A stretch of DNA of 64,000 nt from Candidatus Sungiibacteriota bacterium (GCA_016432465.1 CP066690.1:786724-850723), one strand, 5' to 3'; counted from the first letter of the stretch, positions 5,926-61,161 are shown. Made by a program: numbers and translations. The notes: a model not told the origin generated them from the sequence alone.

Positions 5926-5943
5926 AAACAATATCTTGGGTTT

Positions 5944-8682: not shown

Positions 8683-8716
8683 TGACAATTACGCTAGAGT
8701 TTGTTATTCTTTATAG
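8683..8716 (+). promoter_or_regulatory. Sigma-70-like promoter (TTGACA-17-TATTCT) plus GGGAGG RBS for pncA
   Basis: Consensus -35 and an acceptable -10, about 30 bp upstream of ATG 8743. Confidence 0.45.
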
Positions 8717-8742
8717 AGGGCCTACAAAGGGAGGCTAGAACA

Positions 8743-10955: not shown

Positions 10956-10961
10956 TTTTTG

Positions 10962-10998
10962 AAGCCGAAACGCAACCGCGTTTCGGATTTTAGTTTTT
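10962..10998 (+). terminator. Rho-independent terminator (GCCGAAACGCAACCGCGTTTCGGATTTT)
   Basis: Hairpin plus T-run after the pncB stop. A second hairpin CCGAGAGTTCACGCTCTCGG at ~11013-11032 serves the convergent minus-strand gene. Confidence 0.7.
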
Positions 10999-11047
10999 TG
11001 AAAATGATAAAGCCGAGAGTTCACGCTCTCGGTCTTTGACTTAACTG

Positions 11048-11872: not shown

Positions 11873-11957
11873 TCGTTAGTCCCCCCGCAAGGTTTCTTTA
11901 ATCGTACCACGATTTCTCTGATTTTGCAAACTAAAACCGAAGCATGAGCTTCGGTTG

Positions 11958-13145
11958 CTATCTTCCCTCCAAAATGGTCTGCATAATCATTCCGACAGTT
12001 GACCAGTCAAGCAGTCGTGTCTCAATAATTTCGCCCAATGTTTTTACTTCAAGTGAGGTTTGTTCTCCTTCAGCGATATTTCCAAAGACCGTGCGGTTTC
12101 GAGCATTAGTCTCAAAATACTCAATTTCTTCGGGTTTAAGTCGGATAGAAAAAAGGTGGGTGTGATGCGCAGAAAAAGTTCCGGCAACCTGACGCGAACC
12201 ATGGGCAACCAGGCGGCATTTTTCAAATTCTTTTCCGGTTTCTTCCTTAATCTCCTCCAGGGCAATTTCTTCCGGTGTCAGCCACCATTGGGGTGAGGAG
12301 CCGCTGGGCAGCTCGTGGATAAATCCATCCGGAGTTCTCCCCGAAGGCCGGAACTCTTTTACCAAAACAATTTTTGTATTCAGCGGGTTGAAAGCTTCCT
12401 GCCATAGCACTGTGGCCGAGGTATCGGTTCTGGACAGGGCAAAATCAAACTCGCTTGTTTTGAATCTATTTTCCGAGGCAATAAAGATCCGTGCCTGTAG
12501 TATCCATCTGTAAACAAATGACCCCTTAGCATTCTTGCGGGAGCACCAAAGTACCTCGGCCCCTTCCAGTATATTTCCTGCTGTCTTTAGACCTTCATAC
12601 CACAATTGGAATGATTTCGCGTTCCAGATGTGAAGCGGTATGTCGCATTCACCGCCATTTCTCTCGGCGCCGCCTCCAATGTAGGAGACCGCAAAATCAA
12701 GGGTGTCTTTCAGCGTTTGAAAGCGCGGGACGTCTTGCCTGTCTGCCGTCAGTTCAAGATATTTATTTCTAGGAAGATCAGGTGGAGCGCCATAAACTAT
12801 TTTGCCCGAGCGTACCCAAAGACCAAATTCCACGTTGGTGGTAAAGGCAGGCATGGTAGTAAGGTTTCTTGGCACCCAAAACACAATAAGATCCGCCCTG
12901 TTAAGGCCTATTCGCTCCCAAGCAATCTGGTGTTTGTATTCTTGATTGTTTATATCTTCTTCTCTTGGTCCGTCGCGATTTTCCGGTATAAATACATGCC
13001 CGTCATAGCCAAGTTCCTCCAGAATTTTGATTGCCCCGGGAATGCGCCAAGAGGGAGTAGTGCGTTTCCTCGGCGTCGGCCCTGCAAGAAATATAGATTT
13101 TTTAACGTGCGTAGGAAAAGGTTCTCTGGTATAAATCAGTTCCAT
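11958..13145 (-). CDS. Two-domain protein: N-terminal Rcl/DNPH1-like nucleoside 2-deoxyribosyltransferase-fold domain fused to C-terminal Nudix hydrolase
   Basis: N-terminal IFLAGP...ADLIVFWVP...TTNVEFGLWVRSGK fits the Rcl/NDT pattern. The C-terminal half has the Nudix box LPSGSSPQWWLTPEEIALEEIKEETG. Confidence 0.5.
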   Translation of the reverse strand: MELIYTREPFPTHVKKSIFLAGPTPRKRTTPSWRIPGAIKILEELGYDGHVFIPENRDGPREEDINNQEYKHQIAWERIGLNRADLIVFWVPRNLTTMPAFTTNVEFGLWVRSGKIVYGAPPDLPRNKYLELTADRQDVPRFQTLKDTLDFAVSYIGGGAERNGGECDIPLHIWNAKSFQLWYEGLKTAGNILEGAEVLWCSRKNAKGSFVYRWILQARIFIASENRFKTSEFDFALSRTDTSATVLWQEAFNPLNTKIVLVKEFRPSGRTPDGFIHELPSGSSPQWWLTPEEIALEEIKEETGKEFEKCRLVAHGSRQVAGTFSAHHTHLFSIRLKPEEIEYFETNARNRTVFGNIAEGEQTSLEVKTLGEIIETRLLDWSTVGMIMQTILEGR

Positions 13146-31671: not shown

Positions 31672-31800
31672 CTCTGCAGTAGTTCAACGGTAGAGCGGCG
31701 CGCTGTTTCAGCCTGAGGCTGATCCGCCTCTGGCGGAAAGGAGACGGTCGCAGGTTCTCAGCCAAAGGCTGATTCGCCTCGGGCGAAGAATCCTGCAGCA
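31672..31800 (+). pseudogene. tRNA-Asn-derived sequence carrying two ~30-nt insertions (anticodon loop and T-loop) and a degenerate acceptor/anticodon stem
   Basis: D-arm TAGTTCAACGGTAGAGC, CTGTT...AAGGAGACGGTCGCAGGTTC...GAATCCTGC are collinear with the downstream tRNA-Asn. Insertions lie at 31708-31737 and 31758-31787. Confidence 0.5.
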
Positions 31801-31827: not shown

Positions 31828-31900
31828 TCCGGTGTAGCTCAGTGGTAGAGCGGCTCCCTGTTAAGGAGACGGTCGCAGGTTCGAATCCTGCCACCGGAGC
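31828..31900 (+). tRNA. tRNA-Asn (anticodon GTT)
   Basis: TCCGGTG/CACCGGA acceptor, anticodon loop CTGTTAA, T-loop GGTTCGAATCC. Confidence 0.8.
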
Positions 31901-32306: not shown

Positions 32307-32828
32307 TTATCGAGGCACCGGTAATCCTATTTTTTGCAGCGGTAAGTAATTGAAGTAATATTGACACCCAACTGAAATAACATAATCGAGCGTATCTTTA
32401 TATGCGGGATTTTTGAACCAATCGTTGAGAATATAGACATATTCAACCTCGATATTCAGCGGTGCCATAAGTTTGCGATATTGTTTTTTCTTAAAGTCGC
32501 AAGTTTGTAGCTTCTCATCAACCGATCCCGCGACTTTCTGAAATTTCATCTCAATAATAAAGAGTGTGTTATTTACGATTACATATAAGGCCTCGTCTGG
32601 AAAAAGACGCTTCGAAACTAATTTATGCCAATTGATCTTCCTTTCCAATAACAACTTATATAGCCCCTGCTTGCGGTAACTGCGAGCTACTTCTTTGCCA
32701 CGATAATAAATTACACTGCCTTTCACAGAATAATCCTTAGCCTTTTTGAGAATTTCTAAAATATCGCGCTCTTTCTCAAAATTTAATCCCGTAATTGTAT
32801 TTCCCCCTCCTACACCTTTTGCCTTCAT
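32307..32828 (-). CDS. Putative type II restriction endonuclease (PD-(D/E)xK)
   Basis: FPDEALYVIVNNTLFIIEMK (PD...ExK spacing), 173 aa, 5 bp downstream of and co-directional with a DNA methyltransferase. Confidence 0.4.
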   Translation of the reverse strand: MKAKGVGGGNTITGLNFEKERDILEILKKAKDYSVKGSVIYYRGKEVARSYRKQGLYKLLLERKINWHKLVSKRLFPDEALYVIVNNTLFIIEMKFQKVAGSVDEKLQTCDFKKKQYRKLMAPLNIEVEYVYILNDWFKNPAYKDTLDYVISVGCQYYFNYLPLQKIGLPVPR

Positions 32829-32833
32829 AATTT

Positions 32834-34315
32834 TTATATTTTATTAAATTTTAGTGATAGATTTCGATTCAATTCTTCAAAGCGTTTAACGGATAAATCT
32901 AAAAATTTTGGTTCGGTATCGATGCCTATAAATTTTCTACCATGAAGATAGGCCGCGATGCCAGTAGTGGAACTCCCGGTGAATGGGTCAATAACTAAAT
33001 CACCTTTATTTGTGCTTGCGAGTACTATTCTTTTTAACAAATCTTCTGGTTTTTGTGTAGGATGTTTCCCAAACCTTTTTTCTATCGGTCTTGGCGTGCC
33101 CATTGACCAAACCGAGCGCATTTGGAGACCTGGTTTTTTTAAATTATCCTCTGCCCAATGGCCATTTTTCATTAGATCATAATTGAATGTATGTTTCGCC
33201 TTTCTTTCTTTTCTCGCCCAAATTAAGGTTTCGTGACTTGCGGTAAAATATCGGCAACTAAGATTCGGTGACGCGTTTGGTTTAAACCACGCAATATCGT
33301 TTAAGATATGATAACCGAGGGCCTGTAGGGCGTGACCACACTGATAAATTGAATGGTAAGTACCACTGACCCAAAGAGTGCCGTGCGGCTTCAAAACTCT
33401 CCGACACGCCTCCATCCATTTGTAATGAAAATCATAGTCATCTTTGAACCCCTTGCTTTTGTCCCAATCTCCCTTATTCACGCTAACCATTCGCCCTGCG
33501 TGAACCGTAAAGCCGCCATTGGAAAGGTTGTAAGGTGGATCGGCAAAAATCATATCAACTGAGTTTTCTGGAAGTTTTGCCAGTACATTGAGACAATTCG
33601 CTTGGTAAAGTTTAAACCCTGGCTTTTCATAATATGGTTTTGATGTAGTTACTTTCTGTTCTCTGTTGTAGAATTTTATTTCTGGAGAAATTTCTAATGG
33701 GGTAGTGTTGATGTTCTCACGAATAACATCGAGAACTATTCCTTGTATTGAAACATCCCGGCCATTTCTAAAAATAAGCGGCTCCATGCTTCTATTTGCT
33801 GGCTGTAAACGGATATGACCGCGCTCTCTATAAAATTTCTTTAGCGTCGCTTCGTGATTGTCTATAAGCGCAACTACTTTTTGGCCATTGTCAGCAACGG
33901 CTTGTTGTTTCACTAAAACGACATCGCCGTCGTTAATATTCTCGTCAATCATACTGTTGCCAACTACGCGGAGGGCATAGAATTCACCACCTCGAGGCAA
34001 CTTACTTTGAGGGACCGCGATGGTTTCCTTTTCTTGTATCGCTTCAATCGGCTGGCCCGCGGCAATAGTCCCGAGTAGCGGGATTTTCACCAGCCTGGCG
34101 GCTTTTTCCACTAAACTAATACCACGCGTCGAATTATCATCTTTAGTAATAAATCCCTTATCTGCCAAAGTTCCGATATGCTGGTGGATCGTAGAAAGTG
34201 ATGCGAGTCGGAAGTGTTTTTTAATTTCTTCCAAAATTGGTGAAAGGCCCTTCTTGTTGATATAGGACTTGGTATAGTCGTAGATTTGTTTTTGTCGCTT
34301 GGTTAGAGTAGCCAT
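32834..34315 (-). CDS. LexA (complete wHTH + S24 autopeptidase) fused to C-terminal beta-class N6-adenine/N4-cytosine DNA methyltransferase
   Basis: Residues 1-200 align with LexA: LTKRQKQIYDY, cleavage-site IPLLGTIAAGQP, catalytic VVGNSM Ser and LKKF Lys. Residues ~270-490 carry IFADPPYN (motif IV) then DPFTGSSTTGIAA (motif I). Confidence 0.75.
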   Translation of the reverse strand: MATLTKRQKQIYDYTKSYINKKGLSPILEEIKKHFRLASLSTIHQHIGTLADKGFITKDDNSTRGISLVEKAARLVKIPLLGTIAAGQPIEAIQEKETIAVPQSKLPRGGEFYALRVVGNSMIDENINDGDVVLVKQQAVADNGQKVVALIDNHEATLKKFYRERGHIRLQPANRSMEPLIFRNGRDVSIQGIVLDVIRENINTTPLEISPEIKFYNREQKVTTSKPYYEKPGFKLYQANCLNVLAKLPENSVDMIFADPPYNLSNGGFTVHAGRMVSVNKGDWDKSKGFKDDYDFHYKWMEACRRVLKPHGTLWVSGTYHSIYQCGHALQALGYHILNDIAWFKPNASPNLSCRYFTASHETLIWARKERKAKHTFNYDLMKNGHWAEDNLKKPGLQMRSVWSMGTPRPIEKRFGKHPTQKPEDLLKRIVLASTNKGDLVIDPFTGSSTTGIAAYLHGRKFIGIDTEPKFLDLSVKRFEELNRNLSLKFNKI

Positions 34316-34402
34316 AAACGATTGACTCAGCGTACTTATTTTCTTACACTATCAGTATACCGAAGATTTGCCGAAGATGTAACAAGTGAGTTATCCACAG
34401 AC

Positions 34403-35347
34403 ATGGGAACAAAAACATCAAATCCAAAAAGACAGCATTATGTACCGGCCTGCTATTTAAGAGAATTTACTGATCCGCGAGACGGATTGCTTTGGATATT
34501 TAATAAAGACGGGAAAAATGTTCGTAGACAGAAACCAGAAAAAACTTTTACATCAAATCATCTCTACACGATAAAAATAAGTGGCACCAAGGACTACCGC
34601 ATCGAACAAACACTTTCGAATATTGAAGGTAACTACGCCGGTATATTTCAAAGTAAAATCAAGAAGAAACTCCTTCTAACAGACTACGAACACATTATTT
34701 TATGTGTTTTTGTTGCAGCCCAACTTCAAAGGACATTGCGCATGAAGAAGAATCATGAAAATTTCATCCAACAGATTATAGATCACGGCAAACAGCTATT
34801 AATGGTTCACGGTAAGAATACTAATTCTAAGCAAATACAAGAATGGGAATCGTATAAAAATGACATCCATAAACTTCAGTTGTTAGATGGGTTGCCCTTT
34901 TTAACTAAAATTTTGCATCAGATGAGTGTTGCGTTTGTATGCTCGGCAAATCCTCAAAAACACTGGTTCATTACATCTGATGATCCATGCACTCTTTTCA
35001 ACCCAGATTTACAATGGCAGCGTTTTTATGGCCCGGGTTTTGGACAGAAGAATGTGCAACTAACGATGCCTCTATCGCCGGAAATAACTGTTTTCTTTTG
35101 CTGGGCTAATTATCATGGCTATTCACTTGCTGACGGCTATACGGTGGAAGAAATGATGAATAGGATGACGCGCGGGCACTGTCACAAAGAATTTGTATCT
35201 CCATTTGGCAATAAAAAATGGATATGGTTTAGTAGGATTCCTTTGGACCCGATATTTCTAATCAAAGTGTTAAAAACACGGCTTCGCTTTTTCTTGCATG
35301 ATGTAAAAATAAAGTGGAGGCGGCGTAAGTGCAAACGATATGAATGA
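34403..35347 (+). CDS. DUF4238-like protein
   Basis: N-terminal QHYVPACYLREF and C-terminal WFITSDDPCTLF match the two DUF4238 signature blocks as I recall them. Start MGTKTSN is preferred over the upstream alternative at 34322. Confidence 0.5.
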   Translation: MGTKTSNPKRQHYVPACYLREFTDPRDGLLWIFNKDGKNVRRQKPEKTFTSNHLYTIKISGTKDYRIEQTLSNIEGNYAGIFQSKIKKKLLLTDYEHIILCVFVAAQLQRTLRMKKNHENFIQQIIDHGKQLLMVHGKNTNSKQIQEWESYKNDIHKLQLLDGLPFLTKILHQMSVAFVCSANPQKHWFITSDDPCTLFNPDLQWQRFYGPGFGQKNVQLTMPLSPEITVFFCWANYHGYSLADGYTVEEMMNRMTRGHCHKEFVSPFGNKKWIWFSRIPLDPIFLIKVLKTRLRFFLHDVKIKWRRRKCKRYE

Positions 35348-37082
35348 TCTAGTCGAAAAAATTAAAGAAGTAGAGGCATCTTCGTTATCTGACGCAGAAA
35401 AGCTACAGCAGTTTGTAAATTTCATGGTCTCGCTTAAACCCGTTGATAATTCAGCGGCTTTAGTATTAGCTTGCACCTACGGAATATCTTCTGCGCAGAG
35501 ATTAGGTAGGTCAGAGATGGAAGCGCAATTTTATATAACTAGGGCTAAAGTATTCATTATGCAAACTGGTACTCTGATCCATGAGATGAAAAATATTACT
35601 TTAGCACCGCACTGGTTTCAGTTTGCTCTTGAGTCAGAAAAGAAAAGGTATGCCGAACTGGATATGCAAGTCAAAAAAATCTGGAGCGATGTTCAAGCTG
35701 ATATAGAAAAAGCATTTGAGGCGATCAATAAAAATCGTATCGCTGGTGCCGTTGCCTTCGTCTTAAAAACTACTGGTGAAGTTTATGGTCAATACTATTT
35801 ACAACTCAGGTTGTACTGTTTTAAATCAAAGTCGCCGTTTCATGCTCGGTTAGCAAACATGAAAATTTTTCGATGGATTGGGGCCGATGATTTTTTCGTT
35901 CTCAGTAAGGAGGCTAGAGGTAAACTTAAAACTGTGAAAAATGATTGTTTAACAAACCTATATAAAGCGATTGCTCTTTTTAAGCAACATAAGAATTACG
36001 ACTACCTGGCTGACGCCCTGCTTGCTCTTTCAACAGAATATCGTTCTTTCCAAAGTCCAATAAGGTCAAGATTTTATCTTACTCAAGCGGAAAGACTGAT
36101 AAAAAAGCATAAACTAACAGAACTTGAAGGCAACTTAGCTCTTATGAAGCGATGGGAGCCATTTAGTAACTATAATCCTAAAAATTTTATGGACATTAAC
36201 AGACTTGTAGAAGCTAATACTGCGTTTAGGAGGTTTGAAAAGGAGCTCTCTGGGTTTAGCGTCTCCGACAATAAAGCAAATAAATTTATGTCTTTGCTGT
36301 TAAGCTCTCTTGAATCTTTTGAGCTTGTTTCTACCCGTTACGCAAATATTAGAAACAAAATACAAGATATACACAAAGAAGAATGGGCGCAGAGAAAAGC
36401 AAATCCAGAAAGAAAATCATGGCCCGCACATCCTGATGAAAAATACTCCTACGCCGCCGTACGAGTAGATGCTGAATCTCTTTTTATATTTGGAATAATC
36501 ATGGTTCGCAGGACCCTCCCATTGATAGAATTGTTTATTCTCGATAAGCCACCGGCTAAAACATTCGAAGATTTGAGCAATTTCTATAGTTGGATTTCAA
36601 CTACCCCGAACCCATCAAAACTAACTGCTGATTTAAGAAATGATTTCGGTCATCATTTCAGATGGCTTTATGCGGTACTAAGATTTTACAGAAATAGATT
36701 TGTTGAGCATCTCAGTGAACCGCGACAACAAGGAATGAACTTTGATTTGGGAGGGAAAAAATTTGCATTACACTCCTATAAGTGGAATTTTAATGCGAAT
36801 GACGAAAAAGCTATTTTGGATTTTAAGAATAAACTGGAAAAAAGAGGTATAACGATACCAAATGAACATAATCCACGACATTATGTACAACTGGTTTTTG
36901 ATAACTTGGATCAGGTTCCCGAAGATTTTCTGCAGGACGCACTAAGATTAATTGATGATATCGGGATAGATTCGCCGTCACCAACAACTTTAATAAATCA
37001 CATTGAGGCGTATCTTCGGGATTTATTTAATTTTATGAGTGATCGTATTGGAGACAGCCACTTGGCTCAATACCGCAAATAA
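35340..37082 (+). CDS. Large hypothetical protein (580 aa, predicted helical)
   Basis: 8-bp overlap with the preceding gene (operon); no motif recognised. Confidence 0.4.
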   Translation: MNDLVEKIKEVEASSLSDAEKLQQFVNFMVSLKPVDNSAALVLACTYGISSAQRLGRSEMEAQFYITRAKVFIMQTGTLIHEMKNITLAPHWFQFALESEKKRYAELDMQVKKIWSDVQADIEKAFEAINKNRIAGAVAFVLKTTGEVYGQYYLQLRLYCFKSKSPFHARLANMKIFRWIGADDFFVLSKEARGKLKTVKNDCLTNLYKAIALFKQHKNYDYLADALLALSTEYRSFQSPIRSRFYLTQAERLIKKHKLTELEGNLALMKRWEPFSNYNPKNFMDINRLVEANTAFRRFEKELSGFSVSDNKANKFMSLLLSSLESFELVSTRYANIRNKIQDIHKEEWAQRKANPERKSWPAHPDEKYSYAAVRVDAESLFIFGIIMVRRTLPLIELFILDKPPAKTFEDLSNFYSWISTTPNPSKLTADLRNDFGHHFRWLYAVLRFYRNRFVEHLSEPRQQGMNFDLGGKKFALHSYKWNFNANDEKAILDFKNKLEKRGITIPNEHNPRHYVQLVFDNLDQVPEDFLQDALRLIDDIGIDSPSPTTLINHIEAYLRDLFNFMSDRIGDSHLAQYRK

Positions 37083-37103
37083 TCTTTTTTAATTACAAAT
37101 ATT

Positions 37104-37589
37104 ATGGCCGCAGGATGGGTACATGCATCGATGGATTTAATGGCGTTTGGACGCAGTTATTTTGATTTGCATAAATACAAAGATCATCCTTGGAGAGAGT
37201 TGGGATATAAGCATAGGCAAATAAATCACGATTGGTATAAAGAATTCGGTAAAAGCTGGAATTTCAATGAACCATTCCCCCCAATAATTCACATGAGAAC
37301 TGATGCTATAGAGAATCCAGATGAGGCGGAACAATTTCAATCGTGGACTTCACACGATTATTTGGATCGTATCTGGGATACTCTTGATTTTGAACGGCGG
37401 AGAAGTTTTGAGCTGGCTTGCAAATGGTTTTTGGAAAACCCCGAAGAACTGAATCGAGTTTACGAAATCGATGTTTTTAGAGGTTTAATTTTCCGTGTTA
37501 TTGACGGAAAAGAAGTAACTGAGAATTGTCCTGAACTCGTCAAAGAATATCAGCGTCTCCGTAGCTATGTGGCAAGGATTAATTTGTAA
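37104..37589 (+). CDS. Hypothetical protein (161 aa), third gene of DUF4238 operon
   Basis: Co-directional, 21 bp after the preceding gene. Confidence 0.35.
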   Translation: MAAGWVHASMDLMAFGRSYFDLHKYKDHPWRELGYKHRQINHDWYKEFGKSWNFNEPFPPIIHMRTDAIENPDEAEQFQSWTSHDYLDRIWDTLDFERRRSFELACKWFLENPEELNRVYEIDVFRGLIFRVIDGKEVTENCPELVKEYQRLRSYVARINL

Positions 37590-37855
37590 ACTTCTTAAGC
37601 TCGTCTAATTCGGGTCAATCTGGTGCCAGTGGTACAAAGCTCTGACCCGGGGTTAATCGCTCGCCACAGGGGCACACAGCTCGTAATTCGCGGTGTTTCT
37701 ACCAGTAGTTCACGATCTTAAACGGAGAAATGTTGCCGGGAATCTGCCAAATAGCGGTTCTAAATGCGTGAAGCGCGCGGAGCAAGATATAGGTAGCGGA
37801 TGGCAAATAAATCTGTTTCTGTGTACAACTCTGGATTTTTCTTGGGATAATTGAT

Positions 37856-39100
37856 ATGGTAACAGTAATGAGGTTTACGCCTAAAAAAATTACACTATTG
37901 ATTGCGGGAGCAGTGTTTACTGCCGGACTTGCAGTGGGCTTTGTTATTCCTGTTTTTGCGGCTGATGATTACAACAGCTCAAGGTCAAATACCTCAATAT
38001 CAGTAGTAAACATACCAATAGCAAACAAACACGTTGGAGATATTCTTTTGCGCTACGGCGCGGGCGGCGCGGAGATCAACGAGGTGACGGACGCTCTTGC
38101 TCGAGGTATTAGCACAGCTGACCTCAAGGCAATGCTGGTTAAGTTTGGTGTAAGCGATACGGGCATTGAGGCGGTCTTTACAAAACTTGATGAGCTTGGG
38201 GCTGGAGCTGATTCTCCCGAAAAAGAATTTACAACAGGAGGGGCGGTTTCTGCTCCTGCCGCGGGGAAAACACCGCAACCAGCAGCAGTAAATCGAGAAG
38301 TTAAGCGAATGAGTGGCAAAGTTTCTGCTCCTAATACACAAGACGATCCAAGACGAGGCAAGGGAAGCGTCAATTTTATAAATAAACCAGACAGAGGCGC
38401 ATTTCACGATACGCAGCAGGAAATTCTTGCAGAGTTTGATAGGTACGAAGAAGGCAAAAGCGTAAGAGAAAAAACAGATAAAATAGAAAAACTCCGAGCC
38501 AACCGCGAAGCATTTCAAACAGAAATAATATCTGTGAATTTAACTATTCGCGAAAACGCAAAAGCGCTTCGCGATAATTTCCGAGAAAATGTAAAAACAA
38601 CAATAGGCCACGTGGACCACGGAAAGACGGCGCGCATTGCCGTTGCCCACGGCAAAGGACTGCGCATGCTCAATCGTTACCGTTCAGCCATGGTCCGGTT
38701 TGACCATATTTTAAGCCGGCTGGAATCGCGTATTGAAAAAATGAGAATTGAATTTGAAGCTGAAGAGCGAGCAAAAACCGGCTCTGTAAATAATACATTT
38801 CCGCCACGCAACATGGCTATTCTTATTGAGAAAGCCAAAAATATGAGCGTTGAAAACGAGGCAAAGATGGAAGAACTTAAGGCAAAATATGAATCCCTGC
38901 TTTTGGGCGAAAATGCAAAGGGAGTCTTAGCCAAATTGACCATCGTTCCTGAAAAAGGGGAGGAAGCCCGCGCGCTCGCCGCAGAACTGAAAACAGACAT
39001 AGAAAACCTCCGCGCCATAATTATTGAGATATATACGCAAGGAGCCGGCTACCGCGGCGGCGTCGATTTCAACAGTTCCAGATCAAATACCAGTATATAA
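37856..39100 (+). CDS. Membrane-anchored/secreted coiled-coil protein with NSSRSNTSI motif at both termini
   Basis: N-terminal TM/signal (LLIAGAVFTAGLAVGFVIPVFA), a long charged helical middle, and the nonapeptide NSSRSNTSI at residues ~40 and at the extreme C-terminus. Confidence 0.4.
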   Translation: MVTVMRFTPKKITLLIAGAVFTAGLAVGFVIPVFAADDYNSSRSNTSISVVNIPIANKHVGDILLRYGAGGAEINEVTDALARGISTADLKAMLVKFGVSDTGIEAVFTKLDELGAGADSPEKEFTTGGAVSAPAAGKTPQPAAVNREVKRMSGKVSAPNTQDDPRRGKGSVNFINKPDRGAFHDTQQEILAEFDRYEEGKSVREKTDKIEKLRANREAFQTEIISVNLTIRENAKALRDNFRENVKTTIGHVDHGKTARIAVAHGKGLRMLNRYRSAMVRFDHILSRLESRIEKMRIEFEAEERAKTGSVNNTFPPRNMAILIEKAKNMSVENEAKMEELKAKYESLLLGENAKGVLAKLTIVPEKGEEARALAAELKTDIENLRAIIIEIYTQGAGYRGGVDFNSSRSNTSI

Positions 39101-39194
39101 TCATGGCTATTTACCCCGTTAGAAGTTCTTGGCAGAAAAATTTTTATAAAAATTTTTCTGCGCTGAATTAACGGGGATATAGTAAAAACAAAGT

Positions 39195-39575
39195 ATGTCA
39201 GAAACAAATTATAATAATCGCATGGAGCAGACTTATAACGGGGCAAGAAAAAACACACTTATCATTGCAATTATTATTCTCGCTGTTGTCGCGGGAGGAG
39301 TATTATTTTTCTTGAATCGGGGCCCTTCGTATCAAAAAGAGTCGCTTACGATTGAGCAGGGTTTGACGCCTATTGAACTTTCTCCAGAAGAACAGCAGGC
39401 GCTTCAAGCCGAAGGACTCGCCATTCCTTCTGGAGAAGACACAGCCGCAAAAAATTTGCAAACCGTGCGAACTTCCGACGAACTTGACGCTATTGGATCC
39501 GATCTCAACGAAACCAATCTATCAGGACTTGATGCCGAATCAGAAGCAATAGAAAGCGACCTCTCTGGGCTATAA
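39195..39575 (+). CDS. Small single-TM protein with acidic C-terminal tail
   Basis: TM LIIAIIILAVVAGGVLFFL; 126 aa. Confidence 0.3.
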   Translation: MSETNYNNRMEQTYNGARKNTLIIAIIILAVVAGGVLFFLNRGPSYQKESLTIEQGLTPIELSPEEQQALQAEGLAIPSGEDTAAKNLQTVRTSDELDAIGSDLNETNLSGLDAESEAIESDLSGL

Positions 39576-39798
39576 ACCTTGATAGGAGTAAAACAGAGGG
39601 CCGAGGGGCGCAACGGGGATTTATTCTTTCCCGCTCGCCACGTTAGAGATCCGCATTGTAAATGCGGCAGATACCATTGGCATCTCATCTCTAACGGGGC
39701 GAGCTGTTCCCGCAAAAAACTCCCGTGCTGGGAGTTTTTTGTTTCCAAACAATAGTGGGTTGAGGCGTGGGGGTAAAATGTTGTAAGATATAAAAAAT

Positions 39799-40146
39799 AT
39801 GCAATTTTTAATTAAAGTCCTAATCTCGGCGTTGATAATTGCTCTGGTGTCTGAGGCGGCACGACGGTTTACTTTGGTCGCCGCTCTTATTGCCTCGTTG
39901 CCTCTTACATCAATTTTGGCTATCATGTGGCTTTATCGTGATACAAATGATGCACAAAAGATTATAGATTTATCATCAAATATCTTTTGGGCAGTATTAC
40001 CCTCGTTGCTATTCTTTATTGTCCTACCAACACTTTTAAAAATGGGGTTTAAGTTTGGTTCGGCTATGGTTATATCATCAATAGTCATGTTCTTTGGGTA
40101 TACCATCTATGCCGTTTTACTCAATAAGCTTGGAATAAAGATATAG
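39799..40146 (+). CDS. Small membrane protein (3-4 TM helices)
   Basis: Hydrophobic 115-aa ORF lying between the two halves (B and A) of the left repeat. Confidence 0.35.
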   Translation: MQFLIKVLISALIIALVSEAARRFTLVAALIASLPLTSILAIMWLYRDTNDAQKIIDLSSNIFWAVLPSLLFFIVLPTLLKMGFKFGSAMVISSIVMFFGYTIYAVLLNKLGIKI

Positions 40147-40252
40147 AAATAGCGGTGGGGGTAAGTTTATAAGTTCGCATATTCCCTCAAATCTGGGATG
40201 TAAATATATTCATTTTGTCTCTTAAAAATGGTTCTAACATTGTTCACGGTGC

Positions 40253-40289
40253 GGAGCATCTCCGAAAGGCCAGATAAAACTGGCTTCAT
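40253..40289. repeat. Direct repeat A (GGAGCATCTCCGAAAGGCCAGATAAAACTGGCTTCAT); second copy 43695-43731
   Basis: 34/37 identical to the copy at the right end of the 3.4-kb module. Companion repeat B: TTGTTTCCAAACAATAGTG(G/A)GTTGAGGCGT at 39739-39768 and 43732-43761. Confidence 0.75.
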
Positions 40290-40324
40290 GGTTAGTAATA
40301 AAAAAGATGCCCAAGATACGGGCA

Positions 40325-41440
40325 TCAGCTTTTGATTCGCTCTCTGTCTTTGCGGAATGCGTCAAATGCGCCTATGGCAATATCAAGAAGATCTTCGCGA
40401 AGGCACAGTTCATCGCAGAGCATCATGGTGCGGTAGCCTATGTCGTACAACCACGTTAGATCGCAGAAGTCTGCACAGGAGGGAATATCCCTATTGATAA
40501 GTGATAGAAGCGTCGTCTCTACCAGTCTCGCTGGATCCTGTTTGTTTAAGTCAAGGGCACGAACCAGTTTAATTGCTTCAGAGATTTTGCGGTTTCTAAT
40601 ATCGTTGACTACCGAAAGAAGAATTCTTGAGCCAACACACGCTTCGGGGTCTTTTCCAACAATCAGTCTTAGGGCGTCCACTATCATGTGTGGCCACTCC
40701 AATTCTATAAAAAGATCGCCGCGGGCAGCCACCAGAATAAGGTTGTCTGATTTTCGGAATCCTCGCGCCACGAAATTAAGACCGCGCCGGTTTTCTATTT
40801 TGAGCATTACGACTGTATCTCTGCCAATCAATTCTTGAAACTCGTCAATATCTCTTTGGTCTTCCACGTAGGACAGGAAGTAGTTCTTAAATCCTGCCCT
40901 TTGAACTTTTTCCAGTTTGCTTTTCTCTTCATCGGTAAACAGTGGGCCGCTGGTTTTTAAGGATGGGTCTAGGATGTGAATAGACTCTCCGGGGTAAACC
41001 ATGTACGCAGGTCCACCGCGAAAAACAAGACGCCGGCCGTCCTCCTCAAGTTTTTCCAACATGGCGCTATCGGCGCCGGCCTTGAATAAAACCATCACCG
41101 GCGTTTTTACAGAAATTGGGTGATTGAGTCTCAAGTCTAAGTGGGTGGTGTTTTCCTTGTCTACCCACGCAACACGCAATTGTCTGCCCTTGGCGTCAAA
41201 GTACAGAGGCACTGCGGGCTTAAGGTCGTGCAGGGCTGTAAGTTCTTTTTCCAGTTCCGGATTATTTATCATGGCGCTATTCAGTCGTATTCCTGCAATT
41301 CTTTTGTCATCCATAAATTTAGTGAAATGCGGGAAGCTTGACCACAGTGTTACCATAAGCTTGAGGGGTTTAAATAAAAGAGCCTCTGGAGACTTGACTC
41401 GCGAGAGGCTCGGGAAAAATCTACGCAGTCCTGTGACCAT
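40325..41440 (-). CDS. Pyruvate-kinase-like TIM-barrel domain protein (PK/HpcH-type KIEN...ARGDL motif)
   Basis: VMLKIENRRGLNFVARGFRKSDNLILVAARGDLFIE resembles the PK barrel active-site stretch; the rest is unassigned. Confidence 0.35.
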   Translation of the reverse strand: MVTGLRRFFPSLSRVKSPEALLFKPLKLMVTLWSSFPHFTKFMDDKRIAGIRLNSAMINNPELEKELTALHDLKPAVPLYFDAKGRQLRVAWVDKENTTHLDLRLNHPISVKTPVMVLFKAGADSAMLEKLEEDGRRLVFRGGPAYMVYPGESIHILDPSLKTSGPLFTDEEKSKLEKVQRAGFKNYFLSYVEDQRDIDEFQELIGRDTVVMLKIENRRGLNFVARGFRKSDNLILVAARGDLFIELEWPHMIVDALRLIVGKDPEACVGSRILLSVVNDIRNRKISEAIKLVRALDLNKQDPARLVETTLLSLINRDIPSCADFCDLTWLYDIGYRTMMLCDELCLREDLLDIAIGAFDAFRKDRERIKS

Positions 41441-41450
41441 CTCTGACTCC

Positions 41451-42416
41451 TTAGTTTTTTCTGATCGTTACAGATCGTCCTTCGCCCAAAGACTTCTTTG
41501 ACTGTTCGCCGCTCGGCAAAGCATGTATGGTGTGCAAAGACGTCATTACAGTTTTGACCTGCTCCGGTGTTTGACGACCACTAAGCTCTTTCCGGAAATA
41601 ACCTATTTTCCCGGCTTCTCGGGCCATGATGCCGAAAATTACGTCAACCACGCGGCCGGGGTCAGCCAGAAGTGCAATGTGGTCTTCACCGACCAAAGCA
41701 GCCCAATTTTCATGAACTCTCTTGGTAGTGCCGGTTAGCGGACCATCAGAAAGCACCTCGCGGCCATAGGGCTTTTGAATAAAGTAGACCGAGAATTTCT
41801 GTTTCAATTCGTCAAAGATCTGACTGGTTCTTACCTTCTGGGGAAGCTTTACACGAGCGATCAATTCTGCTTCTTCCGGATCAACGAAGTCATAGGGCGA
41901 TTCGTCGCCAATGACGATCAGAAGCGGCCTCACGGCATTGGGCATAACAACGTTTCGTGCACAATAGAGAGCCGCAAGTTCATAGCTCTCCTGGGTTGTG
42001 CCGCCGCCTTCACCCTCAATCACCAGTTCCTTAAGTCTTTGAGCGTGGTCTGTTCCTTTGGCAAAGGGTCGCATCTGGAGCGGATACTTCTCGTTGTTGC
42101 GGGCATCGCCTATAGCACCCCAGCTAATTTCTACGTCTGTCCCCATGTATTCTGTCTTTGCCTCGTGTTCCAGATATGGCATTTTTGAGAACATGGTTGC
42201 TGGCCACTCACCCATTGAGCCTGACTGATCCGTAACAATAGCCATTGGGTTTTCGCTTTCAGTAGAGATACTTGCTGGAACCAAATCTTTAACGGTAGTC
42301 CCGCGGCTGAGGGCCTTATCCATGCTAGTTGCGGCAAAGTCTCGGTAATTCCTGCGTGCGCTCGCAAAGTCGTGACCAGCCCAGACGCCCGGACTATAAT
42401 CGCCAGCCTCTGACAT
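41451..42416 (-). CDS. von Willebrand factor A (VWA) domain protein
   Basis: MIDAS motif VTDQSGSMGEW. The start is moved to the internal Met (MSEAGDY...) to leave a 160-bp divergent promoter region. Confidence 0.55.
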   Translation of the reverse strand: MSEAGDYSPGVWAGHDFASARRNYRDFAATSMDKALSRGTTVKDLVPASISTESENPMAIVTDQSGSMGEWPATMFSKMPYLEHEAKTEYMGTDVEISWGAIGDARNNEKYPLQMRPFAKGTDHAQRLKELVIEGEGGGTTQESYELAALYCARNVVMPNAVRPLLIVIGDESPYDFVDPEEAELIARVKLPQKVRTSQIFDELKQKFSVYFIQKPYGREVLSDGPLTGTTKRVHENWAALVGEDHIALLADPGRVVDVIFGIMAREAGKIGYFRKELSGRQTPEQVKTVMTSLHTIHALPSGEQSKKSLGEGRSVTIRKN

Positions 42417-42580
42417 ACTGCCTCCTGTTGTTTTGGGATTTTCGGAGTGGTACCCATCCTGTCCACTCCGACCCACCAGTGATTGTACAGCTAAGTCACC
42501 TATTCTGTCAATGGCTTGACAAAAATGACACTTCTGGGTAGCATATAAGCAGCTCCCCAATTTTTATTATAGGTGGTTTG

Positions 42581-43636
42581 ATGGCTCACGCTAGGTCCAT
42601 TGAAGAACTTTACGAAGTGCTGGAAGTTAGTCTAAAGGCTTCTCCGGAGGTTTTGCATGCAGCCTTCAGGGCTCTTATGGCTAAACATCATCCAGATCCG
42701 CCCAACAGAACGGAAGCAGATGAGGAGCGTGCTAAAGAAGTCAGCGAGGCGTATGCCGTTCTTTCCGATCCCAGGGCCCGAGCGAGGTATGAACATAGGT
42801 TTAGAGACTTGACCGGCAAGATTGTTGGAGAATACCGCATACTGGCAAAAATTGCCGAGGGCGGATTTGGATGCACTTACAAGGCCGAGCACATGACTAT
42901 TGGCGAACCGGTGTGTATTAAGCACTGTCATAATCTGGATCCTTTTGATGAAGCAATTCTGATTGAGGAAGCTAAGGCCATGTGGGATCTTAGACATTAT
43001 TCAGTTCCGGCAGTTCGTGGTTTGTTAAGAATGCCGGACGGAAAGCTGGCTTTAGTGATGAGTTATATTCCCGGTCCAACGCTGACTCAACTCGTTGAGA
43101 AGTTATCAGAAAACAGCAGGAGATTGGATCCGGAACATGTAGCTTGGGTCACGGAGAGGGTTTTAAATGCTTTGCGTTACATCCACTATCAAGGTATAGT
43201 GCACGGTGATTTAAAACCGCACAATATCATTGTTGAGCCGGACAAACATTTAGCCTCTGTTGTTGACTTTGGGCTGTCCAAGATTAAACCTAAAGCCAAG
43301 TCCGGAAGTAAGGGTTACACTGAGTTTTTTTCGGCCCCCGAAGTTATAGCCGGCGGAACGATATTGCCGGAGGCTGACATGTATAGTTTGGGCATGACAA
43401 TGATTTATGCCTTATCCGGCGATCCGGACTGTTTGTTACGAAAAGAGGTACCAACCAATACACCCCTGCCCATGCAGAAGTTCATCAAGAAATTGATTGT
43501 CCGTGATCCTTTGTCTAGACCAAAATGGCCGAGTAGCCCGAATGAGATGGATCTTTGGGACGAGTTTTTGGAGATTCGCAGAGAATCTTTTGGCAGGAGT
43601 CGTTCTAGTCTGAAACCAATTCCGGGATTTAACTAA
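42581..43636 (+). CDS. J-domain (DnaJ-like, HPD) fused to Ser/Thr protein kinase
   Basis: N-terminal LYEVLEVSLKASPEVLHAAFRALMAKHHPD...AYAVLSDPRARARYE (J domain). The kinase part has GGFGCTYKA (Gly loop), HGDLKPHN (catalytic loop) and DFG. AGGTGG RBS and ATG 42581; hairpin terminator ~43645-43682. Confidence 0.75.
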   Translation: MAHARSIEELYEVLEVSLKASPEVLHAAFRALMAKHHPDPPNRTEADEERAKEVSEAYAVLSDPRARARYEHRFRDLTGKIVGEYRILAKIAEGGFGCTYKAEHMTIGEPVCIKHCHNLDPFDEAILIEEAKAMWDLRHYSVPAVRGLLRMPDGKLALVMSYIPGPTLTQLVEKLSENSRRLDPEHVAWVTERVLNALRYIHYQGIVHGDLKPHNIIVEPDKHLASVVDFGLSKIKPKAKSGSKGYTEFFSAPEVIAGGTILPEADMYSLGMTMIYALSGDPDCLLRKEVPTNTPLPMQKFIKKLIVRDPLSRPKWPSSPNEMDLWDEFLEIRRESFGRSRSSLKPIPGFN

Positions 43637-44093
43637 TCTGTTTTGGGGTTTCCCCGCACGGAATAAACCGTGCGGTGTTTTTATCTGGCCTTTTGGAGAT
43701 GCTCCAAAAGGCCAGATAAAACTGGCTTCATTTGTTTCCAAACAATAGTGAGTTGAGGCGTAGTGAAAACAGGATTATCCACAATTTGAATTTTGTATAA
43801 TTAAAAACGCCCTTCTCTTGGCGAGTTGGGCGAGGATGTAACTCGTAGCGTTGTGGACCGATATACGTCGGGAGCAGGGCCGCCAGCGCGGTGACCTTCC
43901 GATTTCATCGGGCAACTGCTACGGGGCTAAAACTCTCTGCGTTGTTGACTGGGTCAGCCGCTGGCACTGCCCAGGCAACGCAGAGGGATTATAACAACCT
44001 AAGCATAGCATAATCAGTCATGACCTGTCAACCACAAGTAACCCCTCATAAAAAGCATCGGTGTCTGTTACGGAGGCGTGTCAAGCGCAATAA

Positions 44094-44274
44094 ATCCCCC
44101 CACCTTCCCAGCGTGGTATTGGACCCCGTGGGAAGGATTTCTACAGCGCCCATTCATCCCCGCAGTCCAGCCTTCGTCCCGCTTCTAGCGGGACTACAGT
44201 CGCACGCCGCCATAGCTTTGGCGACGGCGCGCGGAGTAGGCCAAGCTACGAGGTATTCTGGGAAGGTGGGGGGA
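44094..44274. repeat. TIR element copy 4 (~180 bp, with ~75-bp internal insertion)
   Basis: Termini TCCCCCACCTTCCCAG / CTGGGAAGGTGGGGGGA, core collinear with copy 2 plus extra GC-rich segment. Confidence 0.75.
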
Positions 44275-44282
44275 TAAAAGCG

Positions 44283-45719
44283 TTATGGGGTTGGGTGCTT
44301 CTTTAGAAATTTAACCCTGCCCAGCGAAAAGAGGCCGTAGCTTGCCAGCAAAAATATAAAGGTATTGACCGGATAGCGGTGCCGGCCGTAGTCGCTGAAG
44401 CCCGCAACAATGGAGGTGGTTGCGTAATATATAATAAGTAGAGCAAGGAGGAGAGCAATCACTCTCCCAGCGCCCCCCCTTTTAACTGCCAAAAAAGCGC
44501 CGAGAGCCCCCAAGATGGTCAGAAATATCCAGAAAATTCTACCCGCTAATGGTATTAAAAAAAGTACTCCGAGTCTTTGCCAGACGAGCTTGGCAAGCGC
44601 CCCGGGCCCTTCTTTGATAAGCGTCACGGATGGGGAAAAGTCCATGGCAAAGCGCGGAATTACCCTGTATTGCCGTAAATAAGTGGCATATAAATCTTGG
44701 GTAAAGAAAGAATTTATGCTTATCGCAAAAACAGCCAGCGTTTCTTTGGGATTTTCAAGCATAATTTTAATTCCTTCACGCGCCAACAAAGATCCGTAAG
44801 CCGGATTTTCTTTTAAATCCTTAATAGTAAGGCCTTCCCGTAAAGCCAGGGTTTTATAAAGTTTTTCCTGCACTTCGCCATAAGGCTGGTCTGTTTTATA
44901 GTTCATTACCGAGGTGCCAAGAGACGAATAAATGTTGCGAACTCCGGTGGTGGACACGCTTATTGTGCCAAAGCGAATGTAGTTGCGGAGCAGCCAAGGC
45001 GAGAGGGTGAGGAGAAAGAAGACGGTAAACACTAACAGGATTAAGGCCCTCTGTTTAGCCGCCAGCACGATTCTTTCTTCGGGGGCGGGATCCGACCGCA
45101 CTCTTTTTAGGGATCCTTTAAGAAGAAGAATGAAAAGAAAAACGGCGGCCGGTATAAAAAGAAATTGAGCGTGAGGGCGAGTAAGAGTAGAAAGGCCAAG
45201 AAGTAAACCGGAAAAGAGAGCCGAACGGACTGAAAAATCTCCCAGCAGTTTTATAAAGAAAAAAACAGCCAGAAGCAAAAAGAAAACAGCAACCACGTCG
45301 CTCATTACGGTAATACTCCATAAAACCCCCAAGGGCTCAAACGCCGTGAGTCCGGCGGCCACTCCGGAGACGAAAGGGCGTACAGATAAACGCTCGCCAA
45401 TTCGGAAGACCACCAACGGCATTAACGAAGCAAGAATAATTTGTAAAATCAAAACCGGAAGTATGGAACTGGCTATAAGTTTTGATCCGGCAATTAAAAG
45501 CGGATAAAGAGGCGGGAAAAAGGCGGTCGGTAAAAAAGGCGGTTCGGGTTCCCGGGAGAATCCGTGTCCTGCCAGAAGATTATTGGCAGTTCGCAAAAAT
45601 ATTCTGGAGTCAGTAAGTTCCAGCCCCGTTTCTCCAAAATTGAGAAGCAGCGCAGAAAGGAGCAGCAAGCGAACAACCAAAGCAAGAAGGATAATTATAA
45701 TAAGTTTTTTTGGAATCAC
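44283..45719 (-). CDS. ArnT/PMT-like (GT39/GT83-type) polytopic glycosyltransferase
   Basis: About 12 TM helices and an N-terminal loop with conserved acidic/aromatic pattern typical of lipid-linked-sugar glycosyltransferases. Confidence 0.55.
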
Positions 45720-60123: not shown

Positions 60124-61161
60124 ATGCCAGTAACTATAAAAGAAAATATCTCCCTCGCGCCCCACACTATATATAAAATAGGGGGGCCTGCGCGATATTT
60201 TGTGGAGACGAAAAATTCAGATGAGCTTAAACAGGCGCTTGATTTTGTAGCAACAAAAAAAGTTCCTATTTTTGTTTTGGGAGCAGGCTCAAATATATTA
60301 GTGAGCGATAAGGGGTTTGATGGTTTGGTAATTCGTATGGCCGGCGGGGAAGTTAAGGTTGAGGGCGAGAGATTGACTGCGGATGCCGGAGTTATGATGG
60401 CGCAAGCGGTATTGAAATCAGCGCAGGCTGCTTTAAGCGGTTTTGAATGGGCCATCGGAGTTCCCGGAACTATTGGCGGATCGGTGCGGGGCAATGCCGG
60501 GTGTTTCGGCGCAGAGATGAAAGATGTCGTTGAATCGGTGAAAATTCTTGACTTGGGGAAGTCGGACTTCCCAAGGAAGTCCGACTTCCTGATATTGAAA
60601 AATACACAGTGTGAGTTCTCGTATCGCGATTCAATTTTCAAAAAACATCCGGAGTGGATTATTCTTTCCGCGACCCTAAAACTTCAAAAAGGAGATCCTG
60701 CTAAAATTCAGGAGAAAATAAAACGCATTACTGCCGAGCGCGCACAAAAACAGGACATTGGCACCAAATCCTGCGGGTGTATTTTTAAAAATATTTCTTG
60801 GGCCCCGTTAGAGGTAAGCCGCCCCTTGGCGGCTGCCGCCGTGCCGTCCGGGCAGGGCGGACCTCTAACGGGGTGGGCAAGAAAAGATATAAATAAGGAA
60901 AAGATTCTTTCACAATTTCCCGAGCTTGAACAATTTAAGGATCAACCCAATGTCCCGGCCTCGTTTCTTATTGATAGGGCAGGACTTAAAGGAAAAAGTG
61001 TTGGACATGTTTTTATCTCCCCAAAACACGCCAATTATTTTGTAAATGAGGGCGGTGCAACGGCTGAAGGGGTTGTCACGCTTATTGGGATTGCCAAAGA
61101 CACCGTGCGACATAAGTATGAATTGTCGCTTGAGGAAGAAATACAGTATGTGGGATTTTAA
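60124..61161 (+). CDS. murB: UDP-N-acetylenolpyruvoylglucosamine reductase, with two in-frame palindromic insertions
   Basis: N-terminal FAD-binding domain (IYKIGGPARYFVE...VPIFVLGAGSNILV), and a C-terminal domain ending EEEIQYVGF. About 45 extra residues relative to typical MurB, located at the palindromes. Confidence 0.8.
   Translation: MPVTIKENISLAPHTIYKIGGPARYFVETKNSDELKQALDFVATKKVPIFVLGAGSNILVSDKGFDGLVIRMAGGEVKVEGERLTADAGVMMAQAVLKSAQAALSGFEWAIGVPGTIGGSVRGNAGCFGAEMKDVVESVKILDLGKSDFPRKSDFLILKNTQCEFSYRDSIFKKHPEWIILSATLKLQKGDPAKIQEKIKRITAERAQKQDIGTKSCGCIFKNISWAPLEVSRPLAAAAVPSGQGGPLTGWARKDINKEKILSQFPELEQFKDQPNVPASFLIDRAGLKGKSVGHVFISPKHANYFVNEGGATAEGVVTLIGIAKDTVRHKYELSLEEEIQYVGF
60555..60589. 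repeat. GGGAAGTCGGACTTCCC palindrome (1.9 copies) in-frame inside murB (encodes GKSDFPRKSDF)
   Basis: Same palindrome family as 7992, 13231 and 18219, which are otherwise intergenic. Confidence 0.8.
60804..60873. repeat. GC-rich palindromic insertion inside murB (CCCCGTTAGAGGT ... ACCTCTAACGGGG arms)
   Basis: 13-bp inverted arms around a GC-rich core, translated in-frame as an Ala/Gly/Pro-rich loop. Confidence 0.6.

Follow-up and report, generated by a model that had tools for sequence, protein, structure and literature searches.

The window analyzed here is a 64-kb stretch (64,000 nucleotides, one strand) from a Candidatus Sungiibacteriota bacterium that belongs to the candidate phyla radiation (CPR) (GCA_016432465.1 CP066690.1:786724-850723). 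It carries a trio of genes: one for a pyruvate kinase (PK)-like protein of 371 aa (40325-41440, minus strand), one for a VWA-like protein of 321 aa (41451-42416, minus strand), and one, on the plus strand, for a 351-aa fusion of a J domain to a Hanks-type Ser/Thr kinase (42581-43636). NCBI files the PK-like and VWA-like proteins under this organism (locus tags HYW89_04480/04485) and records the window's copies as hypothetical proteins; few database homologues carry any other name. An earlier note on this DNA had called the three genes, assigned their domains, and proposed that two repeats, A and B, bracket them as a unit that was acquired or could be excised. The gene calls and domain assignments stood up to our searches, and we find that the trio is a genuine, widespread cassette, undescribed as far as we could find; the mobility interpretation of the repeats was not supported.

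For the PK-like protein, a structure model (pLDDT 88.6) submitted to Foldseek returned pyruvate kinases for 50 of the 50 matches listed (best E 2e-17; query-normalized TM 0.6-0.68). The motifs RLNS, D-x-KG, KIEN, ARGDL, and MLCDE vary little or not at all, with R52, N54, S55, D82, K84, K214, E216, D242, and E246 invariant, and the KIEN and ARGDL segments align with yeast PK and, provisionally, with Escherichia coli PykF. Like the canonical enzymes (PykF/PKM), the protein has an A-domain TIM barrel, a B-domain cap, for which the predicted beta-strand-rich residues 89-156 between the barrel elements would be a fit, and the motifs RLNxS, DxKG, KIEN, ARGDL, and MLxxE. It differs from them in being only ∼14% identical and ∼100 to 150 residues shorter, with a short helical region in place of the C-terminal domain, and in having its gene fixed in an operon with those of the VWA protein and the kinase. 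The C-terminal allosteric/tetramerization domain is missing (371 aa versus 470 to 530; target-normalized TM ∼0.5; C-terminal third helical), and the scores fall below the curated cutoffs of both Pfam PK (25.6 versus 30) and the NCBIfam model TIGR01064 (27.4 versus 306.4 bits). By its fold and motifs, the protein is a PK paralogue that keeps the catalytic motifs for phosphoenolpyruvate (PEP), Mg, and K together with a nucleotide-binding B domain. An HpcH/CitE-type lyase, as in Ter-associated biosynthetic clusters, was considered for this gene and rejected, since the top structural matches and the motifs are PK-specific.

The VWA-like protein has a Rossmann-like VWA fold and a metal ion-dependent adhesion site (MIDAS) which, following the definition DxSxS ... 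T ... D (PMC11090510), reads D63-x-T-G-S67 ... T ... D171. Across 32 homologues, T65 is conserved at ≥90% and D63, G66, S67, and D171 without exception, and the consensus of the site is DxTGSM, GGGQT, and GDE. The only model that matched was phrog_2971 (E 3.5e-23), whose function is unassigned in PHROG; no Pfam, NCBIfam, or PADLOC model did, and a PDB sequence search with the VWA profile was empty. Among 1.84 billion cluster representatives (50% identity), the profile found 1,489 members at an E value of ≤1e-3, 1,054 at 1e-10, and 313 at 1e-30. Because these are few for such a library, and because no curated model matches, we read the protein as a discrete branch and not as the whole VWA superfamily. 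Two further invariant residues, Ser2 and Ser315, are predicted to fall in the two tails of the structure model, N-terminal and C-terminal, where its confidence is low.

In the third protein, the DnaJ model matches residues 11-72 at 56.9 bits (cutoff, 27.8), with the HPD motif at residues 37-39, and the Pkinase model matches at 117.5 bits. The G-loop (GGFGCT), the Lys in CIKH, HGDLKPHN, and DFG are all intact, and these motifs are conserved across the relatives whose genes are linked to a PK-like gene; HGD in place of HRD makes the protein a non-RD kinase. On these motifs, we predict it to be a J-domain protein of class C joined to a Hanks-type Ser/Thr kinase that is active.

Whether the three genes occur together elsewhere had been left by the earlier note to a co-occurrence check, and they do, contrary to one of the conditions under which the note would have been refuted. 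A PK-like profile search of one-genome-per-species data yielded 311 stretches with a relative, of which the best 80 loci were examined. A VWA-like gene was adjacent in 74 of these and a J-kinase gene in 65; many of the loci lacking one or the other are matches at a contig end, and most bacterial members of a distant clade have no kinase nearby. No fourth gene was conserved across the 80 loci. Represented among the loci are many lineages of CPR (Sung-, Davies-, Uhr-, Buchanan-, Falkow-, Collier-, Adler-, and Nealsonbacteria) and the DPANN lineages Woese-, Pace-, and Nanoarchaeota, at ∼45 to 60% identity, and the distant clade, which takes in Chloroflexota, lies at 33 to 36%. Most commonly the order is kinase, VWA, PK on one strand; the kinase gene is inverted only in the Sungbacteria clade, that is, in the window and its closest relatives (L006-L009 in our numbering of loci), and even in these relatives the genes that flank the trio in the window are not found beside it. 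Identities of the three proteins to those of the window covary (r = 0.84 to 0.90 over 57 loci), and mean column identity across phyla is 54 to 62%. In a neighbor-joining tree, with taxa taken from record titles, DPANN sequences form mostly one clade nested among CPR, which suggests largely vertical descent with few cross-domain transfers. The trio is inherited together in CPR bacteria, in DPANN archaea, and, as described below, in some huge phages. The gene combination was not described in the literature searched; the J-kinase fusion may be included in the survey of J-domain architectures from bacteria and phages by Barriot et al. 2020 (cited in PMC8215388).

A few archaeal loci carry additional genes. 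Two loci of the distant clade have an extra conserved protein of ∼290 aa between the VWA and PK-like genes (L075, 7305-8195; L077, 9147-10007), for which there was no Pfam match, and the PK-like gene of L077 is followed by one for a DUF1152 protein (10866-12068). A PhoU-domain protein of ∼317 aa is encoded near the trio in 10 loci, 9 of them archaeal by record title (L034, L035, L043, L044, L049, L050, L070, L073, L076, and L077).

The full trio is also present on 22 IMG/VR contigs of 45 to 485 kb. One of these is GenBank LR745208.1 (485 kb, titled "uncultured phage"), whose copy lies within a separate deep viral clade (L106-L110). Homologues of the VWA-like protein occur in 220 GenBank phage records, 201 of them from Mycobacterium phages, with Rhizobium and Vibrio phages also represented. 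The Mycobacterium phages among the matches listed have genomes of ∼155 kb, for example Bixzunavirus MoMoMixon, where the gene order is gp256 (annotated "Ser/Thr kinase," with a weak DnaJ match), gp257 (VWA-like; hhalign probability of 99.8% against the VWA-like protein), gp258, and gp259, which is like PurA (adenylosuccinate synthetase). A PurA-like gene also stands beside the VWA-like gene in Vibrio phage pv27 and Rhizobium phage TM30. The same arrangement dominates 53 IMG/VR loci whose VWA-like protein is 25 to 33% identical to that of the window: an adenylosuccinate synthetase homologue (Pfam E 6e-59) lies directly downstream in 50, and a gene for a ∼335-aa J-domain and kinase-like protein lies directly upstream in 40.

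The phage cassette (gp256, gp257, and gp259 of MoMoMixon) resembles the trio in its homologous VWA gene, in the J-domain and kinase-fold gene directly upstream, and in a same-strand enzyme gene downstream. It differs in that the third gene encodes an adenylosuccinate synthetase homologue, not a PK-like protein, and in that its kinase motifs are degenerate while HPD is kept. In the PurA-linked branch as a whole, HPD is retained in 30 of the 40 upstream proteins, and the G-loop, HxD, and DFG are degenerate, so that we predict these proteins to be J-domain pseudokinases; the PK-linked branch shows the opposite pattern, with conserved kinase motifs and HPD in only ∼28 of 68 J-kinase open reading frames (ORFs). 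Because the partner is PK-like in one case and PurA-like in the other, the constant core is the J-(pseudo)kinase and this VWA protein, and the enzyme gene is exchangeable. Phage J-domain proteins are known (Rki of RB43), and J-like genes of mycobacteriophages are mentioned only in passing (PMC3486835); the genes of the phage cassette are annotated only as kinase or hypothetical, and no study of them was found. We note that the viral loci with this variant are L137-L190 (IMG/VR), L191 (MoMoMixon, 147000-154573), L192, and L193 in our numbering, and that in Rhizobium phage TM30 phosphoribosyltransferase-like and cytidyltransferase genes lie a few genes upstream of the cassette.

Genes of NAD and ADP-ribose metabolism recur around the trio. 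In the distant clade, the typical order is an NMNAT-like gene, the kinase gene where present, VWA, PK-like, and NadE, and genes for PncA, nicotinate phosphoribosyltransferase (NAPRTase), Nudix, and nucleoside deoxyribosyltransferase-like proteins are found nearby (PncA, NAPRTase, and Nudix in L075, L077, and L085). NadE adjoins the trio in two of the window's closest relatives (L006 and L009), and ADP-ribosylglycohydrolase-like genes lie near it in 12 loci, mostly on viral contigs. In all, an NAD/ADP-ribose gene was found within ∼10 kb in 25 of 102 trio loci, against an informal, rough expectation of a few per cent for a 1-Mb genome. The window itself has an NAD salvage cluster, composed of Nudix (5105-5788), glutamine-dependent NadE (5803-7860), PncA-like (8701-9336), and NAPRTase (9486-10955) genes.

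From domain content and gene neighborhood, we propose that the cassette encodes an Hsp70-coupled switch, made up of the kinase and the VWA protein, for the control of a nucleotide-supply enzyme, a reading to which we give about an even chance. The MIDAS of the VWA protein would serve to bind either the enzyme or a peptide that is acidic or phosphorylated. The kinase fold would recognize its partner and, in the CPR/DPANN branch, would also phosphorylate it, Ser2 and Ser315 of the VWA protein being candidate sites. The J domain would recruit Hsp70/DnaK, by which the complex would be remodeled (assembled or dismantled), and the outcome would be that an enzyme supplying adenine nucleotides is switched on or off. 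The PK-like enzyme would make nucleoside triphosphate from PEP; the PurA-like enzyme, in an equivalent role in phages, would make AMP, and the output would feed the adenylate/NAD economy. A dedicated regulatory complex is suggested because the PK-like protein lacks an allosteric domain and its gene invariably accompanies those of a MIDAS protein and a kinase-fold/J protein, and the adenylate/NAD context is suggested because NAD/ADP-ribose genes recur as neighbors.

Several observations weigh against this proposal. The PK-like protein scores below every curated PK cutoff, and its substrate may not be PEP/ADP. HPD is found in fewer than half of the PK-linked J-kinase ORFs (the ∼28 of 68 given above), and the distant clade has no J domain; since HPD or the J domain is so often missing, recruitment of Hsp70 cannot be indispensable in every case. 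One branch has a catalytically intact kinase and the other a degenerate one, and the role shared by the kinase fold may be binding instead of phosphorylation. NAD genes are near only a quarter of the loci and, in the window, lie 30 kb from the trio. Finally, some of the IMG/VR contigs labeled "viral" fall within CPR or DPANN clades in the tree and may be pieces of cellular genomes.

A wider version of the proposal, which we advance tentatively and hold to be rather doubtful, is that viruses and ultra-small cells have in common a family of cassettes in which an Hsp70-recruiting J-(pseudo)kinase and a MIDAS/VWA protein form an adaptor-switch for interchangeable enzymes, with the effect that the ATP/NAD pool is secured. 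In CPR, DPANN, and huge phages, the enzyme would be a PK without the C domain; other large phages would have a PurA-like ligase in its place. The pool would be secured during infection or in cells unable to make nucleotides. If true, the adaptor-switch would amount to a new way of regulating enzymes and possibly to a new class of phage countermeasure against NAD- or ATP-depleting immunity. The fusion of a J domain to a kinase fold would exemplify target-specific recruitment of Hsp70 in bacteria, archaea, and viruses. PK has been reported in about one-third of CPR genomes, and divergent enzymes missed by hidden Markov model thresholds were not excluded (Jaffe et al., PMC7304191); the PK-like protein would fill part of this gap or would be a new PEP-dependent enzyme with regulators of its own. 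Because a homologue of the cassette is found in >200 cultured mycobacteriophages, which infect Mycobacterium smegmatis, its biology is directly testable.

The alternative that fares best, though we consider it unlikely, is that the cassette is primarily viral, upholding the adenylate/NAD pool while infection proceeds or countering NAD- or ATP-depleting immunity, and would later have been taken up and domesticated by CPR and DPANN. The prevalence of the PurA-like form in viral loci (50 of 53), the 220 phage records with VWA-like homologues, and the PurA-like gene beside the VWA-like gene in all three cultured phages examined are what such a history would lead one to expect, as are the trio of the 485-kb phage in its deep viral clade and the ADP-ribosylglycohydrolase or NadE genes beside the trio on several viral contigs. 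Most copies of the trio, however, are cellular and group mostly by CPR or DPANN origin, and several of the "viral" contigs may be misclassified.

We also compared the trio with known VWA-kinase systems. In the summary given in PMC11090510, the TerY-P triad of Anantharaman et al. 2012 consists of a TerY-like VWA protein, a PP2C phosphatase, and a Ser/Thr kinase. The trio is similar in being a compact operon that pairs a MIDAS-bearing VWA protein with a Hanks-type kinase, a combination believed to work as a switch that depends on metal or on phosphorylation, and it does, like the triad, contain a Ser/Thr kinase. Its VWA protein, by contrast, is not of the TerY family: it has no PADLOC match at an E value of ≤0.1, and the likeness is at the level of the fold only. 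PP2C is absent from the window and adjacent to the trio in just 5 of the 80 loci (L007, L009, L021, L060, and L064). The kinase has an N-terminal J domain, not a C-terminal zinc ribbon or OB fold, and the third conserved gene encodes a dedicated enzyme, PK-like or PurA-like. The trio likewise recalls the ArnB/ArnC-D system, where Hanks-type kinases set the behavior of a cytoplasmic VWA protein. In that system, the VWA protein has an FHA/zinc-ribbon partner, the genes do not form a constant operon of three, and neither a J domain nor a metabolic enzyme takes part. Because there is no match to a TerY model and PP2C is usually absent, we conclude that it is a member of neither TerY-P nor ArnB/ArnC-D (ALTERNATIVES).

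It is improbable, in our estimate, that the trio is an anti-phage defense system of the TerY-P type, in which the VWA protein and the kinase would form a sensor that triggers a toxic PK-like effector draining PEP or nucleotides. Modules of VWA protein and Ser/Thr kinase are known as components of defense and conflict systems (PMC11090510), and the window's copy lies near restriction-modification-like genes and a gene for a DUF4238 protein. In PADLOC, the kinase domain matches the PD-T4-6, mad6 (MADS6), and MkoA kinase models, but these matches are generic and they are the only ones, the VWA and PK-like proteins matching nothing. Besides the scarcity of PP2C, the very high conservation of the proteins (the mean column identity given above) and a tree grouped mostly by CPR or DPANN origin are unlike what is seen for fast-evolving defense genes. 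Moreover, phages themselves encode the cassette and its PurA variant, and the recurrent neighbors are metabolic.

The repeats themselves are real. Repeat A was recovered as a 37-mer pair (A1, 40253-40289; A2, 43695-43731; plus strand) that is 89% identical with an exact core of 25 nt, and repeat B as a 31-mer pair (B1, 39738-39768; B2, 43731-43761; plus strand) with 1 mismatch, starting one position before the sites at 39739 and 43732 given in the earlier note. Pattern searches allowing ≤3 mismatches found two sites for each in the 64 kb of this genome that make up the window, compared with 0.00 matches expected (100 shuffles), and the repeats are thus not due to chance. Their arrangement is also as the note had described it: on the right, A2 directly abuts B2, and on the left, 484 nt that include an ORF for a 115-aa protein (39799-40146, plus strand) separate B1 from A1. 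Window positions 39331-44178, with both repeat sets, are matched at 100% identity by five Logan contigs that come from different sequencing runs, and a strain variant (L088, 98.2% identical) shows the same left side, so the arrangement is not an assembly artifact.

Both repeats are associated with hairpins. On the right, a perfect 20-bp palindrome (43679-43698/43702-43721) has its second arm supplied by A2, a role overlooked in the earlier note; the palindrome and the remainder of A2 together span 43679-43731 on the plus strand. The first 11 nt of A1 (GGAGCATCTCC) and of A2 (GGAGATGCTCC) are reverse complements of each other, and A1 is a half-palindrome with a small GGCCAG/CTGGCT hairpin, located between the convergent 115-aa and PK-like genes. 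Upstream of B1 is a Rho-independent terminator hairpin, AAAAAACTCCCGTGCTGGGAGTTTTTT (39715-39741, plus strand), whose T-tract runs into the repeat. In each of the four copies of B, two of which are on a metagenome contig described next, the T-run at the start of the repeat serves as the U-tract to a hairpin ahead of it; on the right side of the trio, this hairpin is A itself.

A scan of JGI metagenomes for repeat A found no match, and the scan for repeat B returned one contig, L194. It holds two copies of an element of ∼170 to 200 nt (5356-5180 and 1230-1040, minus strand), each directly after a terminator hairpin and upstream of unrelated genes (two unknowns and one with a weak NUDIX match). 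Each copy starts with B and runs on into a segment, C, which in the window follows the 115-aa gene (40155-40257, plus strand; identified by blastn to L194 and alignment) and has a TATAAAT-like -10 box and a conserved end, GTTCACGGTGCGGAGC. B1, which includes the palindrome TTGTTTCCAAACAA, thus opens a B-C intergenic element (39738-39776 plus 40155-40257) common to this genome and an unrelated contig. When positions 39776-40165 are removed from the window, the joined B1 and C align end to end with the two L194 copies at 74% and 63% identity. The sequence GTGGGGGTAA occurs on both sides of the 115-aa gene (39767-39776, the left copy, plus strand, and 40155-40164). Because joining the flanks restores an element colinear with L194, and because of this short direct repeat, we conclude that the 115-aa gene has been inserted into the B-C element, and its insertion accounts for the separation of B from A on the left. 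Its product is a membrane protein of NCBIfam family PRK09272 (Pfam PF28289 in the collection's record); the gene is absent from all 80 related loci and is no member of the cassette. We also observed that the L194 copies contain an extra segment, GATTCGACCCCACTCACCA, that resembles the 3′ end of a tRNA.

A TATAA(A)T box is present both in C and after B2 (43795-43800). We read B-C as a reused module of terminator tail, promoter, and leader, and A as a hairpin element; both are lineage-specific, generic intergenic repeats, not ends of a three-gene unit. Like REP or RPE-like repeats, A and B are short, lineage specific, hairpin bearing, and intergenic and lie next to terminators; unlike them, B-C has a promoter-like -10 box and may be a reused regulatory module, not a selfish repeat. 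On its own, the observation of the repeats is of minor importance.

That A and B are attachment (att) or recombination sites, at which the trio recently integrated or from which it could be excised, is in our view very unlikely. Near-identical direct repeats, unique in the window, do bracket the genes, as the ends of an att-bounded integrative element would. The flanks share no synteny even with those of the closest relatives, and the region sits at the distal limit of a variable stretch that lies downstream of a tRNA-Asn gene (31828-31900) and holds restriction-modification-like and unknown genes. Against this, A and B are missing from 80 of the 80 related trio loci, and a search for bracketing repeats of any other kind around the trio of the closest relatives (L006-L009, 70 to 78% protein identity) found none; B belongs to an intergenic element that stands beside unrelated genes twice in L194, and the split on the left is accounted for by the inserted 115-aa gene. 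The ORFs scanned from 28.6 to 46.3 kb, in and beside the unit, yielded no integrase or recombinase domain, and a 3′ duplication of tRNA-Asn, sought as a tRNA-derived att repeat, was not found. The contigs recovered from several samples all show the same filled arrangement and include no empty site, the search having been confined to these contigs. Exact-protein look-ups of the 115-aa gene and the downstream gene gave a single arrangement throughout, with no empty site or other context, and that of an upstream 126-aa ORF returned nothing on record. Finally, the GC content of the module is not distinct in a composition profile.

The weakest alternative, that the PK-like protein is simply the organism's ordinary glycolytic pyruvate kinase beside unrelated signaling genes, finds encouragement in its intact catalytic motifs, in the pyruvate kinase label that JGI gives to some homologues, and in the report that PK is missing from about two-thirds of CPR genomes with divergent substitutes not excluded (PMC7304191), but we judge it highly improbable given the adjacency conserved across CPR, DPANN, and phage loci, the same two neighbors accompanying a different enzyme in phages, and the wide margin by which the TIGR01064 cutoff is missed (27 versus 306 bits).

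The remaining features of the region concern its expression signals and noncoding sequence. Between the VWA and kinase genes, putative divergent sigma-70-like promoters share a common palindrome, TGTCAAtggcTTGACA (42482-42544, no strand assigned), on the basis of consensus matches only. The operon of the VWA and PK-like genes ends in a terminator at 40306-40326 (minus strand), and the kinase gene has its own at 43654-43675 (plus strand). A hairpin element with the ends GCCCCGTTAGAGG...CCTCTAACGGGGC is present in three copies, at 39633-39704 and 60802-60874 in the window and at 8827-8938 in L007, where, between the kinase and VWA genes, it lies in the center of the palindrome of the divergent promoters. 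The copy at 60802-60874 lies in frame inside murB (60124-61161), adding ∼24 residues to the MurB ORF, which recalls the Rickettsia palindromic elements.

Downstream of B2 and its TATAAT box is a 476-nt, GC-rich (0.54) gap (43805-44280) that extends to a PMT_2 glycosyltransferase gene and has no convincing ORF. It folds far better than shuffled sequences on both strands (z = -5.75 and -5.45), and an 18-nt perfect inverted repeat (44094-44111/44258-44275) closes a long helix within it. From this predicted folding, and with the TATAAT box ahead of it, we regard the gap as a structured RNA candidate. At gathering thresholds, Rfam recovered two tRNAs alone in the window, and nothing credible appeared at an E value of ≤5 over positions 39400-44400. 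Logan contigs end inside this gap, at 44178 and 44218.

The stretch downstream of tRNA-Asn looks like a variable island, in which no integrase was seen. At 32307-35347, it encodes a weakly PD-(D/E)XK-like ORF, a 493-aa fusion of a LexA DNA-binding domain, an S24 peptidase, and an N6/N4 DNA methylase, and the DUF4238 protein; low-GC ORFs without assignment follow (35340-39575). About 90 nt upstream of the tRNA gene, at 31738-31757, is an exact 20-nt copy of tRNA-Asn positions 36 to 55.

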